From IMG/VR virus record IMGVR_UViG_3300045988_142058: DNA of 47,591 nucleotides, one strand, 5' to 3'. Positions 25,122-46,380 of this stretch are shown one piece after another. How positions within the stretch are numbered: the stretch's first letter is position 1; every line of letters begins with the position of its first letter. This DNA comes from a virus. Taxonomy: Duplodnaviria > Heunggongvirae > Uroviricota > Caudoviricetes. Both the position numbers and the translations under genes were made by a program. Under the pieces are notes generated by a model. The model was given only the letters and a program-made list of their open reading frames with translations. It was not told the DNA's origin and searched no databases.

Positions 25122-25230
25122 CGGGTTATCTCCGGTTTAACCAGGGCGGGTATCGCTCGGTTTCGGGTATAACCATAGGAAATTTTTTCCCACCTGTAAA
25201 GCACTTTTTATATAAATCTATAATTATATA
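25122..25230 (-). promoter_or_regulatory. Promoter-leader cassette copy 1
   Basis: ~109 bp near-identical to copies at 32043..32150 and 40979..41087; putative -35 TTTACA (25195..25200), -10 TATGGT (25172..25177), leader with GGAG RBS. Confidence 0.6.
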
Positions 25231-26205: not shown

Positions 26206-26374
26206 ATATTTGATCTGTTTGTCTGGTGTGGCGCCGCGCACGAAAATCCCAGCCAATAAATTCAGGATTTTTGGGCGCGGCGGCATATCAGACAAACATG
26301 GTTGATGCGTGCGCTAATGAGAAAAGCGCATAGAATGTTGTAACTATATATTTATATAATTATAGAAATATATA

Positions 26375-32042: not shown

Positions 32043-32150
32043 CAGATTTCTCCGGTTTAACCAGGGCGGGTATCGCTCGGTTTCGGGTATAACCTTAGGA
32101 AATTTTTTCCCACCTGTAAAGCACTTTTTATATAAATCTATAATTATATA
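32043..32150 (-). promoter_or_regulatory. Promoter-leader cassette copy 2
   Basis: Differs from copy 1 at -10 (TAAGGT) and in ~8 nt next to ATG; lies between Q-like gene and lysis-containing operon. Confidence 0.6.
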
Positions 32151-35864: not shown

Positions 35865-35884
35865 AAGCGGGCTAACGCCCGCTT
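35865..35884 (+). terminator. Hairpin terminator after gene 35486..35860
   Basis: 8-bp stem AAGCGGGC/GCCCGCTT, loop TAAC, then AU-rich sequence. Confidence 0.4.
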
Positions 35885-36010
35885 ATATGATTATAGTTTT
35901 ATATAATTATATAAAACGCTTTTCATCCGCCAAAAAGTTGGTTATGCTTACCTCGTTCTATAAATATAGATTTATAGAATTATATAACCAAACACATGGA
36001 GTCTCGACAA

Positions 36011-36664
36011 ATGACTATCTCTGTAGGTATTTTCAACGGAAAAGGCGGCGTAACCAAATCAACAATTGCCCGTGCTTTAGCAGTTGCTTATGCAAAGGCT
36101 GGCTGGAATGTATGCCTGATCGATATGGATGTGCTTAACGGAACGGTAACGCGTTGGGTACAACGCAGAATGGCCAACAATATCGAACCAGCAATCGCGG
36201 CGCAGCCGTGCGGCACACCATCACAAGTCCAGAAAATCATCGAATCAGAAGTATACGACCTGGTTATCGTCGATGGCGGTGCCTACGCATCTGAATCAGT
36301 ACCGAAGCTCTCTGAATTTCTGGATATGGTTATTTTGCCAACCAGATTCTCTACCGATGACCTGGAAACCACCGTTAACACAGCTCATGGCATCGTTAAA
36401 AAGGGTGTGCCAATCAAGAAAATTTGCATGGTGTTCTCAGGCGCGGCTGAAAACGAAGCCGACTACATTGAAGCCCAAGAGTACCTGGCTAATACGCCAT
36501 ACTTTGTTGTCGATAAGTACATTCCCCACAAGCCAGCTCTGAGCAAAGCTCAGGATAAGGGCTTAAGCCTCATTGAGTGCTCATACGTTGCGCCACGCAA
36601 AAAGGCAGACGACGTTATTCAGGGGATTATCAACCAGCTTGAGGCTCTGACTACTGCCGCGTAA
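36011..36664 (+). CDS. parA: ParA-like partition ATPase (small, type Ib-like)
   Basis: Deviant Walker A FNGKGGVTKST; start at second ATG with GGAG RBS. Confidence 0.8.
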   Translation: MTISVGIFNGKGGVTKSTIARALAVAYAKAGWNVCLIDMDVLNGTVTRWVQRRMANNIEPAIAAQPCGTPSQVQKIIESEVYDLVIVDGGAYASESVPKLSEFLDMVILPTRFSTDDLETTVNTAHGIVKKGVPIKKICMVFSGAAENEADYIEAQEYLANTPYFVVDKYIPHKPALSKAQDKGLSLIECSYVAPRKKADDVIQGIINQLEALTTAA

Positions 36665-39452: not shown

Positions 39453-39456
39453 CTAC

Positions 39457-39489
39457 AAGGGGCTACGGCCCCTTACTCTTTTCTCTCTT
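39457..39489 (+). terminator. Terminator after antirepressor
   Basis: 7-bp stem AAGGGGC/GCCCCTT then U-rich ACTCTTTTCTCTCTT. Confidence 0.55.
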
Positions 39490-39651
39490 ATCAACGCCAG
39501 AGACTTTCTGAAAATCCTTTCGAATAGCGTCAGCGTCACACGCCAAGCCCATACTGGAACGTGTCGCCATATGACGAAAATGATCAACTGCCGGAAACAA
39601 AGAAATAATGGACCCAATAGCTTGCAGCAAACTCGCTTTTCTACGCATCAT
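39463..39651 (-). CDS. Hypothetical small protein (62 aa), convergent with antirepressor
   Basis: ATGATG start with GGTGG RBS; otherwise unsupported. Confidence 0.25.
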   Translation of the reverse strand: MMRRKASLLQAIGSIISLFPAVDHFRHMATRSSMGLACDADAIRKDFQKVSGVDKREKSKGP

Positions 39652-40187
39652 AATTCCACCATAACTGATAACCACCCTTCAGACACAACCCCCCCTCCCC
39701 CCATACAGGGTGCCCTTTACCGGAGTTCCGGCCCCTTCTCAAAAGCATCAAAAAAAGCTCGAGATCGAGTACCGGAACTCATGCCACCAGATAGCTCCAC
39801 ATCGTTTCCAATGCTTCGCCGCCGTGTGCGCCCTGTGGCCCACAATCATGCCATTGGTCGTCTGATATACCTTCTTCTGCTCATAGAGCACAGGCGAGTT
39901 GTCGCACTCCTGCCTTTCTCAGACTCGACTTAGTTTAGATCGCTGTTCCTGGCTTGCGTCAGCACACTTTCCCCTTGTACGCATACCCGCGCGCCACTTC
40001 GCCCAAAAACACCGAACCCAACGAAGTGGCAAAGACAACGACGCGAGCGTGAGTCTGAAATGGGCACCAGTAAAAAAGGGGTTGCAGGCGCAAAAAGATT
40101 TGATTATCTTTAGACGCAAGAAAGCCGCCCCAATCAAGAGGTGTCTTTTTAAATCCAGCCTACCAAGCAAGATTTAAATTTCAGACT

Positions 40188-40220
40188 GAAAACCGCCCGG
40201 CAAGGCGGTTTTTGTCTTTC
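40188..40220. terminator. Bidirectional terminator downstream of HTH gene
   Basis: AAAACCGCC-cggcaa-GGCGGTTTTT with A-run before and T-run after. Confidence 0.55.
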
Positions 40221-40261
40221 TGGCGCTTACATTACACCACCATAAAACGATCCGTAAAGGA

Positions 40262-40978: not shown

Positions 40979-41087
40979 CGGGTTATCTCCGGTTTAACCA
41001 GGGCGGGTATCGCTCGGTTTCGGGTATAACCTTAGGAAATTTTTTCCCACCTGTAAAGCACTTTTTATATAAATCTATAATTATATA
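40979..41087 (-). promoter_or_regulatory. Promoter-leader cassette copy 3
   Basis: One substitution relative to copy 1; heads operon 40598..40978 plus HTH gene. Confidence 0.6.
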
Positions 41088-41245
41088 AATAATAGTAACT
41101 GGTGTTTTTTTAGGCGAAGCATTAAACATTTTTGTTTAGCTTATTGGCAAGGTCTTGAAAAAGACATTTCAGCAATGCTATACCATTGAACATGGTATCG
41201 GCTGAATTTTGTAATTAACACATTTTAAACAATTTGAGGTGCCAA

Positions 41246-41530
41246 ATGGCTAAACAAAAATCTGAAATTGATGCTATTCGAGCATTAACAGAAGTAACAA
41301 TTAAAGGTTTTGAGCAGGTTGCTCAGGCATTAGTTGATATGAGAGAAGCTCAGGGAAAAGTCGTACGAGCAACATATAATGGATTAACCTCCTCAGGAAA
41401 ATCTCGCTATGTTGCATCGCTAGTAGAGGAAGTAGGATCACAAGCTGAAGTAAGCCGCATGTTAAATATCACACCAGGGCGCGTTAGCCAGCTTATGAAG
41501 TCCGAAAAAAACCGCAAAAATGGTAAGTAA
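41246..41530 (+). CDS. Putative small HTH DNA-binding protein
   Basis: ATG at 41246 with GAGGT RBS; C-terminal HTH-like GSQAEVSRMLNITPGRVSQLMK; ATACCAT-N5-ATGGTAT upstream. Confidence 0.45.
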   Translation: MAKQKSEIDAIRALTEVTIKGFEQVAQALVDMREAQGKVVRATYNGLTSSGKSRYVASLVEEVGSQAEVSRMLNITPGRVSQLMKSEKNRKNGK

Positions 41531-41535
41531 ATAAG

Positions 41536-41556
41536 TAAGGCCCCAATGGGGCCTTA
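41536..41556. terminator. Hairpin between convergent genes 41246..41530 and higA
   Basis: Perfect 9-bp stem TAAGGCCCC/GGGGCCTTA, 3-nt loop. Confidence 0.45.
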
Positions 41557-41563
41557 CATTATG

Positions 41564-41863
41564 TTAGACATGGAACGCTACTCGCTTTCCTGTAGGAAGC
41601 TCAACATCCAGGCTTAATTTGCCTCCCATAGCTTCAACGTAACGCTTTAATGTCGCCAGCTTTAAATCATTTCCGCGCTGCTCCAGCTTTGTTACTGCTG
41701 GCTGGCTTATACCCATCGCCTCAGCAACCTGTTTTTGTGATAACTGGAGTTCTTCACGCATCATCTGCAAGCCGACCTCAAGAATCATCTCATCTGCCAT
41801 TTCTTTAATTCGCGCCTGGCTTTCAGGTGAACGGCTGGCAATCACCTCATCTAATGTTCTCAT
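41564..41863 (-). CDS. HigA-like antitoxin (XRE HTH)
   Basis: 99 aa; HTH LSQKQVAEAMGISQPAVTKLEQ; downstream of and coupled to toxin gene. Confidence 0.65.
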   Translation of the reverse strand: MRTLDEVIASRSPESQARIKEMADEMILEVGLQMMREELQLSQKQVAEAMGISQPAVTKLEQRGNDLKLATLKRYVEAMGGKLSLDVELPTGKRVAFHV

Positions 41864-42210
41864 TACTTGCTCTCCAGTGTGTTCAGATGTGCTGCAAACT
41901 CATCCTCAGCTATACGCACCAGTTTTTCATAAAACCGTTTATCGTTACTTTTGTCTCCTGCACAAAGAACGATGGCCCGGCGAATCGGATCGAACGCATA
42001 AAAGGCTCTTATCGGACGGCCAGAAAACTGAACGCGAAGCTCTTTCATATTTTTGTACCGAGAACCTTTTACGGTATCGGCATATGGCCTGGGTAACTCA
42101 GGTCCGTAAACCTGTAGCTTTTTCAAATCAGCCAAAACCTTTTCCTGAAGAGCGTCTTCTTGCTCATTTAGCCAGTCGTCAAATCGCTGGCTAAAAAGTA
42201 CCGTCCACAT
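41863..42210 (-). CDS. RelE/HigB-like toxin (phage Gp49-like)
   Basis: Start at ATG 42210 (AGGA RBS); toxin-first gene order. Confidence 0.6.
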   Translation of the reverse strand: MWTVLFSQRFDDWLNEQEDALQEKVLADLKKLQVYGPELPRPYADTVKGSRYKNMKELRVQFSGRPIRAFYAFDPIRRAIVLCAGDKSNDKRFYEKLVRIAEDEFAAHLNTLESK

Positions 42211-42243
42211 GCTCAATCCTATAACCTGTAGTTTATATCACTA

Positions 42244-42272
42244 ACCATATAACCTGTGAGTTATAATTTCAA
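42244..42272 (-). promoter_or_regulatory. higBA promoter with direct-repeat operator
   Basis: -35 TTGAAA (42267..42272), 17-bp spacer, -10 TATGGT (42244..42249); ACAGGTTATA repeats at 42221..42229 and 42249..42257. Confidence 0.45.
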
Positions 42273-42454
42273 GAAAAACGGGGCTATTTAACATAATGGA
42301 CGTTATCGGCACCACCGGATCACCGTTCATTGTCGGATCTAAAAAATCCGCTCAAAAGATCATGTTTTCCTGGGCGTTTTCCACCGTTTTTTATGTTGCT
42401 TATTTGTTAATGAAATCTCGTTTTCAGTTTCGCCTCATTTTCGACGCGAAAGCC

Positions 42455-42745
42455 CTATTTTTGTGACTTTACTCCTGGCATATGGACTTCCCAGCGACGA
42501 ATCCCCATAGCTGCGCAAAAATCAGCCACATAATTCAATCCCGCCCATTCGCGGATACCACCACGGGCTTTTTCAATGAAAACGGCAATCCCTTTTTTAT
42601 TGAGAGCAAAAAGCCGCCAGCTTTTTGTCACTTCGTCCTGGGTAGCCACAACACAAGTGAAAGCTCCCATGCGATACAGGTCCAAGAACTCTTTGCGTGT
42701 TTTGCGTACAAGTTCCATAACAAACCTCATATTTGCATGTTTCAA
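42455..42745 (-). CDS. Hypothetical protein
   Basis: 96 aa ORF between origin region and higBA. Confidence 0.35.
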   Translation of the reverse strand: MKHANMRFVMELVRKTRKEFLDLYRMGAFTCVVATQDEVTKSWRLFALNKKGIAVFIEKARGGIREWAGLNYVADFCAAMGIRRWEVHMPGVKSQK

Positions 42746-43041
42746 ACATCTGTTTTGTTATCAATGAAGATTAACCCTAACCCAGCGAAGTAACACAGCA
42801 GCGCCCAGGCTGCATACGGAATGCTGGATCTGGATGTGGACTCCTTTAACATCTGCCAGTTGCGAACATTGCGACTATCTTTTAAGCCTAGTTTTTTGGC
42901 CAACTGCGAGCCGCTCATTCCGGTCAGGCCAATGACTGCCCGAACTTCTCCACATGTAGGAGATTCCCATTCATCCGCTTTTTTTAAACAAGCCGGATTC
43001 AACATTTTTAAAACAGTATCTTTATCCATAACCATCTCCAT
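42742..43041 (-). CDS. Putative HTH DNA-binding protein
   Basis: HTH-like GLTGMSGSQLAKKLGLKDSRNVRNW; hydrophobic C-terminus. Confidence 0.4.
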   Translation of the reverse strand: MEMVMDKDTVLKMLNPACLKKADEWESPTCGEVRAVIGLTGMSGSQLAKKLGLKDSRNVRNWQMLKESTSRSSIPYAAWALLCYFAGLGLIFIDNKTDV

Positions 43042-43089
43042 TTATTATATCTACGATGGTAGGAAATCTTTTCCTATGTGGCAATAGAA

Positions 43090-43670
43090 ATTTACTACAT
43101 TGCGTATAAGACAAGTTTTCTATGTCTAATAGGAAATGATGTTTCTTACGTTTTATCGCGTTCTGATGGCTACTGTGTGCGTATTTATCGACGTTTATCG
43201 ATAAGGCTCGCCCCTTCCTCCTGCAAAGCCCGGCCGTAGGCCTTATTTCGGCCTTATATAAATTGATTTTGTATAGTTCGAAACGTGCCGTTTCGAAAAG
43301 GATGATCAGGCTGCTCCATGCCTCCGGCAAGTGCCGGAGGAGGTATATATTTGAGCGTAGCGACTCGAACCGGCGCGAGCTTTAGCTCGCTGCAAGGGCG
43401 AACATATTCACAGGCAAAGCCTGCGTAAGTTAAATAAAGAAAGTCTTAATAAAAGAAAGTGATTTTGCATTTATTTGTTTAGTGCATCTATTATAAAAAA
43501 CCATTTGCATATACATATCAAAACTGTGGATAACTTTATTAGCCGATGCCTGTGAAGGCGATATTTTTGCTGTGTTCAGGTTTAGAGAAAATTAATTTAG
43601 ATTGTTTTTTGAACAAACATTTTATTGCGACGTAGATAATCCTCCGGTAAAACCGGATTCATCATTAAGG
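43090..43670. other. Candidate replication origin downstream of repA
   Basis: ~580 bp without credible ORF; DnaA box TGTGGATAA at 43525..43533; AT-rich stretch with ATTTGCAT repeats; perfect palindromes 43277..43297 and 43321..43340; TTTATCGA direct repeats. Confidence 0.45.
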
Positions 43671-43674
43671 TGGG

Positions 43675-44523
43675 TTAATGTTGGAGTGATTTCCAGGTCT
43701 TTCTTAACCTGTTATAACGCTGCTCAACGAGGGATCGTAAATATGCAAGGTCAGCTCCAGGATACATGCCATCAGCAAATTCCTGGCTAACCTCTCTAGT
43801 GATTTGATGACGAAGTTCGGCCTCTCCCTTTTCCCGAACAAGACGCGCAGCTCTCTCCGCTGCTTTCTGTTTTGCCTTTATCTCTCTGGCCGTCTTCCTC
43901 TGACGCCATACATTCTCCATCTGCTCCTGAATAACAATACGCTTATAATCAGCCTCCGTTATCGCTTTTTTAAGCCGTTCGCTATTCTTCGCATTGAAGT
44001 AATTAAGTTTCTGGCTAACCGCACGTCTCCATGCTTGTTCAGTAATACCAACGGTTTCCAGCAGTTGATCACGAATCTCTATTTTCGCTGGCCAATACTG
44101 TTTATTCACCCGATCCCAGCGACGTTCATAATCAATAAAACCTAACTCTTTCAGTTGCGACAACGCCCTTGTACAGCGCGTTATAGACTTGTTCCCAGCT
44201 TCGGATACGGTAGACAGGCCGCAAAAATCAGCCAACGCCTCAGCACTGGCCAGAACCCGCTTAGAAATGATGTTTACATGGTGCAAAATCGCAGCAATCA
44301 CAGCATTAATTGCCCGACGACGATGCTCGTTTATCCGGCGTTTCCGCTCTGACGGTTGATTAACGTAGAACGCAACCTCACACGTAAGATCACGACCATT
44401 AATGCGCTGTAAAGCATCAGATAACACCAGCGGCAGCTTGTGCGTATGGTGCTTTGGAGGCTGGAACTCCGGCGACAAATTACAAACGTAAGCTGAACGT
44501 AGAGACGGCATTGGTCTATCCAT
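43675..44523 (-). CDS. repA: Replication initiator RepA, IncFII RepA1-like
   Basis: ATG at 44523 (MDRPMPSLRS...); block ...ALADFCGLSTVSEAGNKSITRCTRALSQLKELGFIDY... matches IncFII RepA1 pattern CGL-T-S-AG--SITR-TRAL--L-ELG-I-Y (from memory). Frame open upstream to 44685. Confidence 0.8.
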   Translation of the reverse strand: MDRPMPSLRSAYVCNLSPEFQPPKHHTHKLPLVLSDALQRINGRDLTCEVAFYVNQPSERKRRINEHRRRAINAVIAAILHHVNIISKRVLASAEALADFCGLSTVSEAGNKSITRCTRALSQLKELGFIDYERRWDRVNKQYWPAKIEIRDQLLETVGITEQAWRRAVSQKLNYFNAKNSERLKKAITEADYKRIVIQEQMENVWRQRKTAREIKAKQKAAERAARLVREKGEAELRHQITREVSQEFADGMYPGADLAYLRSLVEQRYNRLRKTWKSLQH

Positions 44524-44535
44524 ATGTTCGCTCTT

Positions 44536-44650
44536 GCGTCCACGGAAAACCAACGTATAATGGGAGTTGTCGAGGCGCCCATGGATATGTTTGTTGGTTT
44601 TCCGTGGATGTCGCAAGAAGCCCGCAGATTTATCTGCGGGCTTTTTGTTT
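44536..44650 (+). ncRNA. Candidate CopA-like antisense RNA in repA leader
   Basis: Plus-strand intrinsic terminator (9-bp stem 44620..44628/44633..44641 + TTTTTGTTT) antisense to repA leader; 16-bp stem-loop 44539..44608. 5' end not defined. Confidence 0.4.
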
Positions 44651-44690
44651 CCATATCTGGTCGTTTTCCAACCAGACACCCACAATCGTA

Positions 44691-44705
44691 ACCACGTTAC
44701 GTGGT
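44691..44705. promoter_or_regulatory. Operator-type ACCAC-gttac-GTGGT in repA leader
   Basis: Same half-sites and spacing as immunity operators; ~100 nt downstream of putative repA promoter. Confidence 0.5.
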
Positions 44706-44811
44706 TTTAAGAGAACTCTACCACAACACTTTCGGTCATGCACGAAGTCTCTCGCTAATCGAACGATAATCCACCAGTAAAAGGATCTAAATCGGATCTC
44801 GTGTTGCGAGC

Positions 44812-44839
44812 ATCATACTACTGGCCTAACTCCAGTCAA
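44812..44839 (-). promoter_or_regulatory. Putative repA promoter TTGACT-16-TATGAT
   Basis: Minus strand -35 (44834..44839), -10 (44812..44817), just after Tfa stop. Confidence 0.45.
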
Positions 44840-44861
44840 TGATGAACATAACAACACTCCT

Positions 44862-45389
44862 TTATTCTGGTTTGTCTGGCCATTCGGGGTTTGCTGTGTC
44901 CACGCGGCTGACAAGAACACTGTAGCGTTCCCATGCTTCCAGTCGTGTGCGTTCCTCGTCTGTTGCCATATTCAGCCTGACAGCGCGTTCCAGCGGCTGG
45001 ATGACTGATTCAGCTTCGGAAAGCAATGCGGCCTTTTGTGATTCGGCTTGTTGTTGCTGTTCGTCTGCCGTATAAATCCGTTTAACTACAGCTCCATCCT
45101 TAAACATCCACTTTCCTGAATCATCAGCGCGGCGGTTGGCTGTAATATCAGGAACCTCAACGACGCTAAAACCTTCAGGGTTAAGCGTGGAGGCATCTTT
45201 AGTGATGGCGACAATAATATTATTTGCATCGTAAACAATCTTTATTGTGTCTGGCTGAAAGTTTTTCACTTCCTCATACCAGTTTTTTCCGTCCTCAGAG
45301 TAAAGCCAGATAACTCCGTGTTTCTTTGTTAACTCATACTGTTCCAGTGTTTTAGCGTTACCCGCTTTTATGTTCTTTAAGTGCATCAT
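44862..45389 (-). CDS. Tail fibre assembly protein (Tfa-like)
   Basis: 175 aa after second fibre gene; C-terminal ...[13 protein letters not shown]. Confidence 0.6.
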
Positions 45390-45390
45390 A

Positions 45391-46380
45391 TTAAACGCTC
45401 GCTACATTATACCAGGTGCCATTTATATACTTTTGAACGGGTCTGTAATAAACGCCCGCTATATTATCGGCAGAGTTGGAACCTGTATCCTGAACATTAA
45501 TACCAGACAATACATGACCTGACGGGCACTGGAAATTCCATGTTTGCCAGTTGTTTACTCCATAATATTGCTGTGAACCAAGTCGAACATCTTTCACATA
45601 ACGGGAATCAAAGTTACCGTAATCCGAGGGGTTAACACGCCCTGTAATATTTATGGTTTTATTACTTTGAATGCTGCCGGAGACAAAGCGCATAACATGG
45701 ACGTTATTAGCATAAACGTCCAGATTACCGTCGCCATTTTGTTTAAAGCCCGTGTCATTATCACCCAAAACAATCGAGTTACCGCCAAGAGCACTGGATG
45801 TTCCGATACCCAGTGCACCATTCAATTGACCACCAGATAACGACAGTGCACCGACATCTCCCGCTGTAGGTTTTCGCGTTGTGGTATAAAACTCAGACCA
45901 GTCAGCCTCGAATCCGTAACCGTCACGAGCAGAACGATAAAAAATACCGCCGTTATTATAATTAACGCGGAACTGGGCGGCGGGACAACTTCCTTCACCG
46001 ATATTAAAATGAAGAATTAACGTTGATGCCCCACCAATAGTTGCGTTATAGGCTCCGCTACTCCAGTTCCATCCAACGGCTTTATCATTCGCAACGGTAT
46101 CTCCTGTTTTTCCTGAAGCAAATGCACCAATATTTTTCGGCGTCAGGTTAATATCTGATGTTCCATCAAACGAAACGGAATTAATCTTTCTCGCGGTTTT
46201 CAGCTTTGTAGCCGTTGAGGCATTGCCGGACAGCTCACCAGAAATGCCACCAACAACTGTTAGATCACCAGTTATTGTGCCGCCTGAACTTTCCAGTTTT
46301 TTAGCAACATCACTCTTAATAGAGTCGATTTCTTTTTTCAGATTAGTTATATCTGCTGGTATCGTTGTCACTGTTGCCAT
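45391..46380 (-). CDS. Second tail fibre protein
   Basis: 329 aa; [27 protein letters not shown] shared with first fibre; Gly/Asn-rich distal region. Confidence 0.65.

Follow-up and report, generated by a model that had tools for sequence, protein, structure and literature searches.

A probable vegetative replication origin of IncFII/I-complex type downstream of repA in an Escherichia coli phage-plasmid

Introduction

Is the non-coding DNA that borders the initiator gene repA of a plasmid prophage the origin from which that element replicates, and what are its palindromes for? The question is raised by positions 43090-43670 of the 47,591-nucleotide Caudoviricetes record IMGVR_UViG_3300045988_142058 (the whole stretch is hereafter called the window), where an earlier note, made from the sequence alone, had placed a candidate replication origin downstream of repA and likened it to the oriR of IncFII replicons. 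In such replicons, repA1 is typically followed by a DnaA box and oriR (PMC2762410), and plasmid R1 has a 188-bp oriR, in which RepA binds just beyond the DnaA box, and replicates unidirectionally by the theta mode (PMC5883639). The analysis reported here supports the candidate by its position, its orientation, the order of its elements, and a covarying motif common to 80 other loci, and it points to 43205-43660 as very probably the vegetative (oriR-type) origin of the plasmid prophage. Judged by its sequence organization, this is an origin of the IncFII/I-complex architectural type that forms a lineage of its own and serves a phage-plasmid. Its anatomy, conservation, linkage to repA, stem covariation, and strand bias are read directly from the window and its relatives.

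Organization of the Origin Core Downstream of repA

The gene repA occupies 43675-44523 on the minus strand and encodes a replication initiator of 282 aa that starts with MDRPMPS. The interval thus lies downstream of repA, as had been claimed, on the minus strand only and not in the plus direction of the window, given that the stop codon of the gene is at 43675-43677. The repA product matches the Pfam family IncFII_repA (PF02387; 7.5e-44, residues 63-329 of the longest open reading frame (ORF), 43675-44685) and the NCBIfam model RepA_IncFII_LM (NF040977; 233 bits relative to a cut-off of 70 bits, residues 14-275 of 282). The interval itself holds no credible ORF, as had been noted: its mechanical ORFs (102, 53, 40, and 62 aa) are unannotated in two near-identical annotated records, and the 102-, 53-, and 62-aa ORFs gave no PHROG match.

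Read in the direction of repA, the first element is a hairpin, AATCCGG-N5-CCGGAGGA (43640-43659, minus strand), within the 142 nt that separate the origin from repA (a CIS-like region, 43534-43674). The same motif (ATCCGG-loop-CCGGAGG) is found at the equal position in R100, pKPC_CAV1392, pRHBSTW-00110_3, and other loci; lying 15-35 nt 3' of the repA stop, it is kept from R100 (39685-39710 of locus L003) to the phage-plasmid despite the divergence of RepA, and its stem has undergone compensatory changes, from CCGG/CCGG to CCAG/CTGG, in the related loci L072 and L078. When an nhmmer profile of R100-type origins (24 intervals) was applied to the window, this post-stop hairpin was the best match and was colinear (E=0.069). 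It may be part of the CIS element, which is thought to keep RepA cis-acting.

The repA-proximal edge of the core is marked by the perfect DnaA box that the earlier note had reported at 43525-43533 (minus strand; TGTGGATAA on the plus strand, TTATCCACA in the repA direction). It begins 142 nt past the repA stop and is the single perfect copy in the 47.6-kb window. Sites with one mismatch number nine in the window relative to 13 expected, and only the perfect box, in its position, is informative. Allowing at most one mismatch, 58 of the 64 distinct related intervals carry a DnaA box in equal orientation, and its distance to the conserved motif described below is near-constant inside the main RepA clades.

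Beyond the DnaA box are three putative RepA boxes with the consensus TANATGCAM, all on the minus strand: TATATGCAA (43505-43513), TAGATGCAC (43482-43490), and TAAATGCAA (43465-43473). The consensus has seven matches window-wide, three of them inside these 49 bp (43465-43513). What had previously been described here as ATTTGCAT direct repeats corresponds to related but inexact sites (ccATTTGCAT at 43501-43510 and gATTTTGCAT at 43461-43470); the real repeat is the threefold TANATGCAM in repA sense. Among relatives whose RepA is 59-81% identical, the box blocks are invariant while the spacers between them diverge, and across the wider set the sequence of the putative boxes follows the RepA clade (TANCTGCAA, CCGCAA, or AACTGCAAG). 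An array of 17-22-bp direct repeats, as in iteron origins, was not found; the repeat search returned two-copy families (8-23 nt) and the 9-nt boxes.

The boxes are followed by an A+T-rich element (43430-43460, minus strand; GC content of 21-23%) comprising two 15-nt direct repeats, ACTTTCTTTTATTAA and ACTTTCTTTATTTAA, which is the predicted strand-opening site. It is part of the AT-rich stretch that had been noted and that extends over 43416-43542, where 90-bp windows have a GC content of at most 24.5% (minimum 21%) compared to 44% overall; this is one of nine such regions in the window. A CTTTTCTTTTA-type run immediately past the last box is present in every clade. The distal core edge is formed by a hairpin, CAGGCaaaGCCTG (43404-43425, plus strand; hairpin 0), which overlaps a degenerate inverted DnaA box, TGTGAATAT (minus strand, 43404-43412). 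The stem of hairpin 0 covaries (CAGAC/GTCTG, CAGCT/AGCTG), and an inverted DnaA-like box is present 14-26 nt before the conserved motif in most loci.

Distribution of Related Loci

Searching PLSDB with the interval by distant blastn returned near-identical plasmids and, in ~150 unrelated plasmids, a 35-50-nt piece around the palindrome at 43375-43390 (hairpin 1). In pKPC_CAV1392, pGDT4, and pRHBSTW-00110_3, this piece is located 270-400 nt downstream of repA in equal orientation. A scan with an exact pattern of the motif, in which the insert forming hairpin 1 was left free (6-14 nt), identified 64 species genomes, nearly all from Enterobacterales and including one 70-kb contig of Yersinia pestis, along with 16 viral contigs. 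Of the 84 loci analyzed, 66 have an IncFII-family repA on the equal strand whose end is 277-640 nt upstream of the motif; RepA was undetected in the remaining 18, which mostly have short upstream DNA, and in no case was repA on the opposite strand.

The RepA types at these loci are R100-like (54-80% identity), pGDT4-like, pKPC-like, pRHB-like, and window-like (59-100%). All of them share a common order of elements: the post-stop hairpin, the DnaA box, three clade-specific boxes ending in GCAA, a CTTTTCTTTTA-like run, the hairpin that overlaps an inverted DnaA-like box, the motif, and further hairpins. Within the window clade (RepA 59-81% identical), the alignment is invariant at the DnaA box, at each of the three boxes, where the T-rich run begins, at hairpin 0, and at the motif, and the sequence from repA to the DnaA box varies freely.

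The Hairpin Module and Its Selection

A module of ~220 bp (43205-43425) beyond the core includes all three palindromes listed in the earlier note (43277-43297, 43321-43340, and 43375-43390), each of which is present as described. Continuing in the repA direction from hairpin 0, the module contains the conserved motif CGCCCTTGCAGCG-hairpin 1-CGCGCCGGTTCG (written in repA sense; 43366-43400, with hairpin 1 at 43375-43390, plus strand, 6-bp arms), with CTG directly 3' of hairpin 1 on the plus strand (43390-43392). Next come the element GTCGCTACGCTC, between the motif (43366) and hairpin 2 (43340); hairpin 2 itself, CCTCCGGCA-ag-TGCCGGAGG (43321-43340, plus strand, 9-bp arms); and hairpin 3, TTCGAAACG-tgc-CGTTTCGAA (43277-43297, plus strand, 9-bp arms). 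Hairpin 3 also occurs in locus L086, and pRHBSTW-00110_3 (GCGAAAAGgcGCTTTTCGC) and L083 have a hairpin of other sequence and equal shape. It is not followed by a run of T on either strand and is therefore not a typical terminator. A small GGCC hairpin separates hairpin 3 from the distal conserved element GCAGGAGGAAGGGGCGAG (43207-43224, minus strand), at which the conserved origin module ends; a GGCAGGAAGGGGGCGA-like block is found ~170-190 nt beyond the motif in pKPC, pRHB, L042, L047, L072, L076, and L078. Perfect arms of at least 9 bp occur at 10 loci in the window, relative to ~1.4 in Markov simulations. The fold of the window also paired the CGCCC motif with the distal GGGGCGA block; this long-range interaction was discarded since, by eye, it is not kept in L086 or L078.

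The stems of these hairpins are maintained by compensatory change. Among 40 distinct free inserts of hairpin 1, Watson-Crick pairing at the three variable stem positions holds in 39, 38, and 37 inserts, respectively, with two to three pair types each; the single clear exception is a chance match in a planctomycete contig. Hairpin 2 is detectable in 71 of 77 distinct related sequences, as 44 different hairpin sequences, and hairpin 0 in 36 of the 77. Further, the mismatches that remain in the stems of hairpins 0 and 2 are strongly asymmetric: on the repA-sense strand there are 42 A.C and only 3 G.T mismatches (20 and 1 in hairpin 0, 22 and 2 in hairpin 2). An A.C mismatch in repA sense is a tolerated G.T wobble on the complement, and folding is therefore likely to be selected on the plus strand of the window. 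DNA folding is also stabler on the strand opposite the repA sense in 74 of the 77 sequences, and R100 itself has the equal bias of stem mismatches. The direction of the bias is consistent and is not what would be expected of a duplex protein-binding palindrome or a cruciform. The favored folding strand, plus, is the one that would be copied by a leading strand heading away from repA.

The earlier note had allowed that some palindromes could instead be a multimer-resolution or terminase site. The element is indeed a real phage, with the virions vB_YpM_39, 41, and 44 being 98% identical here, and sites for recombinases and terminases typically have perfect palindromes. Nonetheless, the same hairpins with covarying stems also follow repA in plasmids that are not phages and that come from many genera (examples are pGDT4, the pKPC_UVA01 type, and a pCD1-like Yersinia contig), and in relatives the invertase adjoins the tail-fibre genes, across repA from the palindromes. 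A dif-like XerCD consensus was unmatched window-wide at up to three mismatches, a test that is weak for divergent cer-type sites. A role in phage packaging (pac/cos) or multimer resolution is thus extremely unlikely. Given their recurrence beside repA, their stem covariation, and their strand bias, the palindromes probably belong to the origin, as priming signals rather than packaging or resolution sites.

Proposed Mechanism of Initiation and Direction of the Fork

The binding, opening, direction, and priming steps proposed for this origin are inferred from R1/R100 and from IncB pMU720, an analogy for which Masai and Arai in 1987 and 1989 and Betteridge et al. in 2003 and 2004 reportedly provide the basis. 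In the model for those plasmids, RepA occupies boxes beside the DnaA box, the duplex opens past the last box with the assistance of DnaA, DnaB is loaded, and a unidirectional fork departs, with primase starting the leading strand at a structured downstream site. In pMU720, RepA footprints AANCNGCAA boxes and the DNA opens just beyond the last of them; in R1, the primase site is immediately beyond the opening site, on the leading-strand template.

Applied to the window, this model would have RepA, made from the adjacent gene and probably acting in cis, bind the three TANATGCAM boxes (43465-43513) beside the DnaA box (43525-43533). Together with host DnaA, RepA would open the A+T-rich repeats past the last box (43430-43460), DnaB would be loaded, and a single fork would leave repA toward lower coordinates. 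Unwinding of the following 220 bp by the fork would let hairpins 0-3 fold on the displaced plus strand, which is the leading-strand template, and the folded hairpins would provide a single-strand initiation (ssi) signal that primase or a primosome could use, with the CTG next to hairpin 1 as a candidate for the start site.

Three lines of evidence bear on the direction of the fork. In addition to the strand bias, all 1-kb bins have a negative GC skew, those at 35-39 kb included, where the plus strand carries the larger ORFs. There is no switch of GC skew in the window, such that skew cannot locate the origin and merely agrees with one direction. Lastly, the only consensus Ter site in the window, GAATGTTGTAACTA (26333-26346, plus strand; context AGAATGTTGTAACTAT), is a perfect match to the Tus-binding consensus GNRNGTTGTAAYKA and lies in an AT-rich intergenic gap 17 kb from the origin; its 12-mer core is expected ~0.006 times by chance. 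By the Tus-Ter rule, we take its polarity to be permissive toward lower coordinates and blocking for forks toward higher ones. Strand bias, GC skew, and Ter polarity all agree with a single fork to lower coordinates; none proves it.

A different division of labor would confine the origin to the core (43404-43533) and make the module (43205-43425) a duplex platform for host factors, an enhancer or fork barrier, or a structured-RNA gene on the plus strand. The priming role of the module rests on inference, its ability to be swapped between RepA clades (see below) fits any host-dependent accessory function, the G.T/A.C bias fits a plus-strand RNA as well as single-stranded DNA, and the distal GGCAGGAAGGGGGCGA block is conserved by sequence and not by shape. 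Against this, no promoter- or terminator-like site was found on the plus strand of 43205-43430, and an Rfam scan of 41000-46000 (E<=1) matched no family within the origin and did not detect CopA; a duplex protein site would show neither a one-strand wobble bias nor free stem covariation; and the position of the module is that of the primase site in R1. An origin limited to the core is therefore considered unlikely, though it deserves weight.

Several observations weigh against reading 43205-43660 as an origin with a strand-specific priming module. The similarity of the core to R100-type origins is not significant, since nhmmer matched nothing beyond the post-stop hairpin (E=0.069) and no match came from distant blastn, and a profile of the hairpin module compared to the flank of the R100 G-site by nhmmer was likewise not significant (E=5.5). 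The first putative RepA box is 11 nt from the DnaA box, versus 2-3 nt in R100, R64, and pKPC, and the exact TCTTAA hexamer, reportedly required in pMU720, is absent from the window origin. The search pattern itself fixed both flanks of hairpin 1, CTG included, and their invariance proves nothing. The hairpins of the window itself are perfect, so that the strand bias rests on its relatives, and the count of 42 A.C to 3 G.T mismatches is inflated by shared ancestry (an estimated 5-8 independent events). GC skew, in turn, is confounded by gene orientation.

Comparison with Known Origins

The likeness to IncFII oriR that had been claimed holds for position and element order, which match IncFII-family origins, but it does not extend to a strict IncFII assignment. 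As in R1/R100 (NR1), the origin is 3' of repA, on the equal strand, after a spacer of 140-180 nt; the DnaA box begins 142 nt past the repA stop in the window compared to 150 nt in pGDT4 and 176 nt in R100, in equal orientation, with a distance of 167 nt in R64. Additional features shared with R100 are the post-stop hairpin (ATCCGG..CCGGAGG), TTATCCACA equally oriented at the repA-proximal edge, a putative initiator-binding stretch and then an A+T-rich stretch (TCTTTTAAA-like), and a distal-edge hairpin over an inverted DnaA-like box that is followed by G+C-rich hairpins. In contrast, RepA of the window fails the strict incFII model (TIGR03474, the incFII_RepA equivalog: 82 bits, below the cut-off of 447 bits, versus 589 bits for RepA of R100) and is 41% identical to R100 RepA across 97 aa. 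There is also no CopA match in the window, and its core, from the DnaA box to the distal hairpin, is ~130 bp versus ~190 bp in R100. R100 lacks the CGCCCTTGCAGCG motif, although loci with RepA 75-80% identical to that of R100 carry it. An inverted pair of Ter sites is located just past the origin in R100, and Ter sites are beside the origin in many R100-like loci; none are near the origin of the window. A strict IncFII origin was consequently rejected, on the grounds of the TIGR03474 score, a core that cannot be aligned and has no significant match to that of R100, the missing CopA match, and the lack of adjacent Ter sites.

The I-complex plasmids IncB pMU720 and IncI1 R64/ColIb-P9 share with the window a DnaA box, then three or four boxes ending in NGCAA, then a short T-rich opening element, and in R64 AANCNGCAA-type boxes are at the corresponding position after the DnaA box. 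I-complex origins also have a diverged copy of the TTGCAGCG-hairpin motif, followed in R64 by a second hairpin. They differ in that the boxes of the window are TANATGCAM (A, not C, at position 4) with the first box displaced by one helical turn, and in that R64 continues to a Ter site and an R100-type G-site, neither of which is in the window.

Replicons of the pKPC_UVA01/pKPC_CAV1392 type (MOB-suite rep_cluster_1367) share the box motif (TAGATGCAA) and the type of downstream hairpin module, and those of the pRHBSTW-00110_3 type have a nearly identical hairpin 2 (CCTCCGGC..GCCGGAGG, followed by CATGGAG) and also share a hairpin 3 and the distal GGCAGGAAGGGGGCGA block. Both types differ from the window in their initiator, as tblastn with the window RepA gives relatives of that size class at ~36% identity, and the DnaA box of pKPC is degenerate (TTATGAACA). 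No experimental characterization of pKPC- or pRHB-type origins was found; papers on HQ103 and pSZESBLEC201-2 were set aside since they deal with other elements.

Primase-dependent ssi signals, namely the G4 complementary-strand origin and the G-site of R1, resemble the module in that a stable hairpin cluster past the opening site is selected on the leading-strand template, and in that CTG is directly 3' of a hairpin on that strand. A direct link between the module and the G-sites of R100 and R64 was dropped, because it amounted to one colinear pair of short blocks in relatives (CTCCGACC ... GTCTGGCAGG), one of which the window lacks.

A mosaic locus bears on how the module relates to its initiator. 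A contig of Photorhabdus cinerea (L047), compared also with a Y. pestis locus (L024), combines an R100-like RepA and core with a hairpin module of the window/pKPC type, and this downstream module is nearly identical to that of a Morganella locus (L042) whose RepA is pKPC-like. The hairpin module is therefore independent of the initiator and seems to have been exchanged between replicons. It is conceivable, and is put forward here only tentatively, that the module represents an undescribed, strand-specific, initiator-independent, and horizontally exchanged cassette for leading-strand priming. Such a cassette may be common to IncFII-, I-complex-, and pKPC_UVA01-type replicons across Enterobacterales and may play the role of the R1 G-site while abutting the opening site. 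No description of a hairpin cassette of this kind was found in the searchable literature, and a text search with the motif sequence matched unrelated primers only.

The Phage-Plasmid and the Expression of repA

A 2.2-kb query from the window is 98-99% identical to ~57 plasmids of 46-52 kb from E. coli, Salmonella, and Klebsiella. The Yersinia phages vB_YpM_39, 41, and 44, which are virion isolates, are 98% identical over the origin region, and the first 25 kb of the window also have matches among virion isolates. From these plasmid and virion matches together, the window is recognized as a phage-plasmid of ~48 kb from E. coli.

An identical 282-aa RepA is annotated in AP019710, with a start that corresponds to window position 44523. 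In near-identical relatives, a 1-nt indel upstream of 44523 shifts the frame of an upstream ATG, and RepA is therefore assigned to 43675-44523; this start is probably correct, and longer calls of 326 or 336 aa are unlikely. The indel is located in the apical part of the antisense-RNA stem described next, distinguishes the window from CP020497 and vB_YpM_44, and accounts for the 326-aa RepA called by PGAP in those two records.

Opposite the repA leader is a candidate antisense control RNA (44536-44650, plus strand) that comprises a 20-bp stem-loop and then a terminator hairpin with a U-run, and that folds at -69.5 kcal/mol (z=-10.5). In Rfam it gave terminator-like partial matches and none to CopA. 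A promoter scan identified a repA promoter-like site at 44839-44812 (minus strand), and no short leader ORF, such as the one for the Tap peptide that accompanies CopA in strict IncFII replicons, was seen upstream of repA.

Limits of the Origin and Neighboring Regulatory DNA

Similarity to L086, L072, L078, and pRHB stops at ~43205. Of the interval originally proposed as the origin, the part from 43205 upward is thus conserved, while 43090-43204, about one fifth of its length, by this comparison is outside the conserved origin and borders the promoter/operator of the next gene. Two copies of TTTATCGA that had been reported as direct repeats are present in this outer part (43184-43191 and 43194-43201, plus strand, 10 bp apart) and contain the palindrome TTATCGATAA; they are outside the conserved module, unaligned in L086, L072, and L078, and in no relative with a diverged backbone. 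A promoter-like site, TTGCCA-17-TACCAT (43056-43084, minus strand), belongs to the next gene (42742-43041), whose product has a weak repressor-family match, and not to the origin. Inside it is a 17-bp palindrome, TAGGAAAtctTTTCCTA (43060-43076), which conforms to TAGGAAA-N3-TTTCCYA; this pattern has four copies in the window (25176-25192, 32096-32112, 41033-41049, and 43060-43076) relative to 0.21 expected, and looks like the operator set of one repressor over several phage-plasmid operons.

These features raise the prospect that all of 43090-43670 is ordinary intergenic regulatory DNA (a repA terminator and the promoter and operators of the next operon) and that the plasmid origin is elsewhere. 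The promoter-like site with its operator palindrome and the TTTATCGA repeats would suit such an arrangement, as would the presence of other AT-rich palindromic regions in the window, for example upstream of parA. The regulatory features, however, are limited to coordinates below 43205, whereas 43205-43660 is conserved with IncFII-family origins that have different downstream genes. Moreover, no second initiator gene was found among the 10 larger ORFs that were scanned outside the tail and head genes, from 26.7 to 39.5 kb; their products include an endolysin, a ParA ATPase, and a repressor like cI. A purely regulatory role for the interval is highly unlikely, and 43205-43660 is retained as the probable origin.

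Three further observations concern the surrounding backbone. The region 35883-35988 is AT-rich, has two long perfect palindromes (GTTTTATATAATTATATAAAAC and TTCTATAAATATAGATTTATAGAA), and is directly upstream of the gene for a ParA-type ATPase (35996-36664); it is likely a partition site or an operator. A toxin-antitoxin pair is located ~1.5 kb from the origin, with the gene for a Gp49/HigB-like toxin (41863-42216, minus strand) overlapping that for a helix-turn-helix antitoxin (41564-41863, minus strand). Lastly, ~800 bp at 39453-40260 have only short, overlapping mechanical ORFs on both strands.

Implications

The origin described here is an expected feature of the known IncFII/IncI-type build, and the widely shared strand-biased cassette is the most interesting by-product of its analysis. 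The results fix the replication module of a family of ~48-kb E. coli phage-plasmids that is common and untyped, with ~60 near-identical plasmids in PLSDB in addition to Yersinia and Escherichia phage isolates. With the start of RepA corrected to give 282 aa, 43205-44860 becomes a compact candidate for a minimal replicon that could be used in incompatibility typing, copy-number work, and vector building. Beyond this family, a covarying, strand-biased hairpin cassette adjoins the origin of many clinically important IncFII-like plasmids, and its carriers include KPC plasmids and a contig resembling the Yersinia virulence plasmid. If the cassette is indeed a start signal for the leading strand, it would represent a shared, host-dependent step that is open to study and targeting across replicons.

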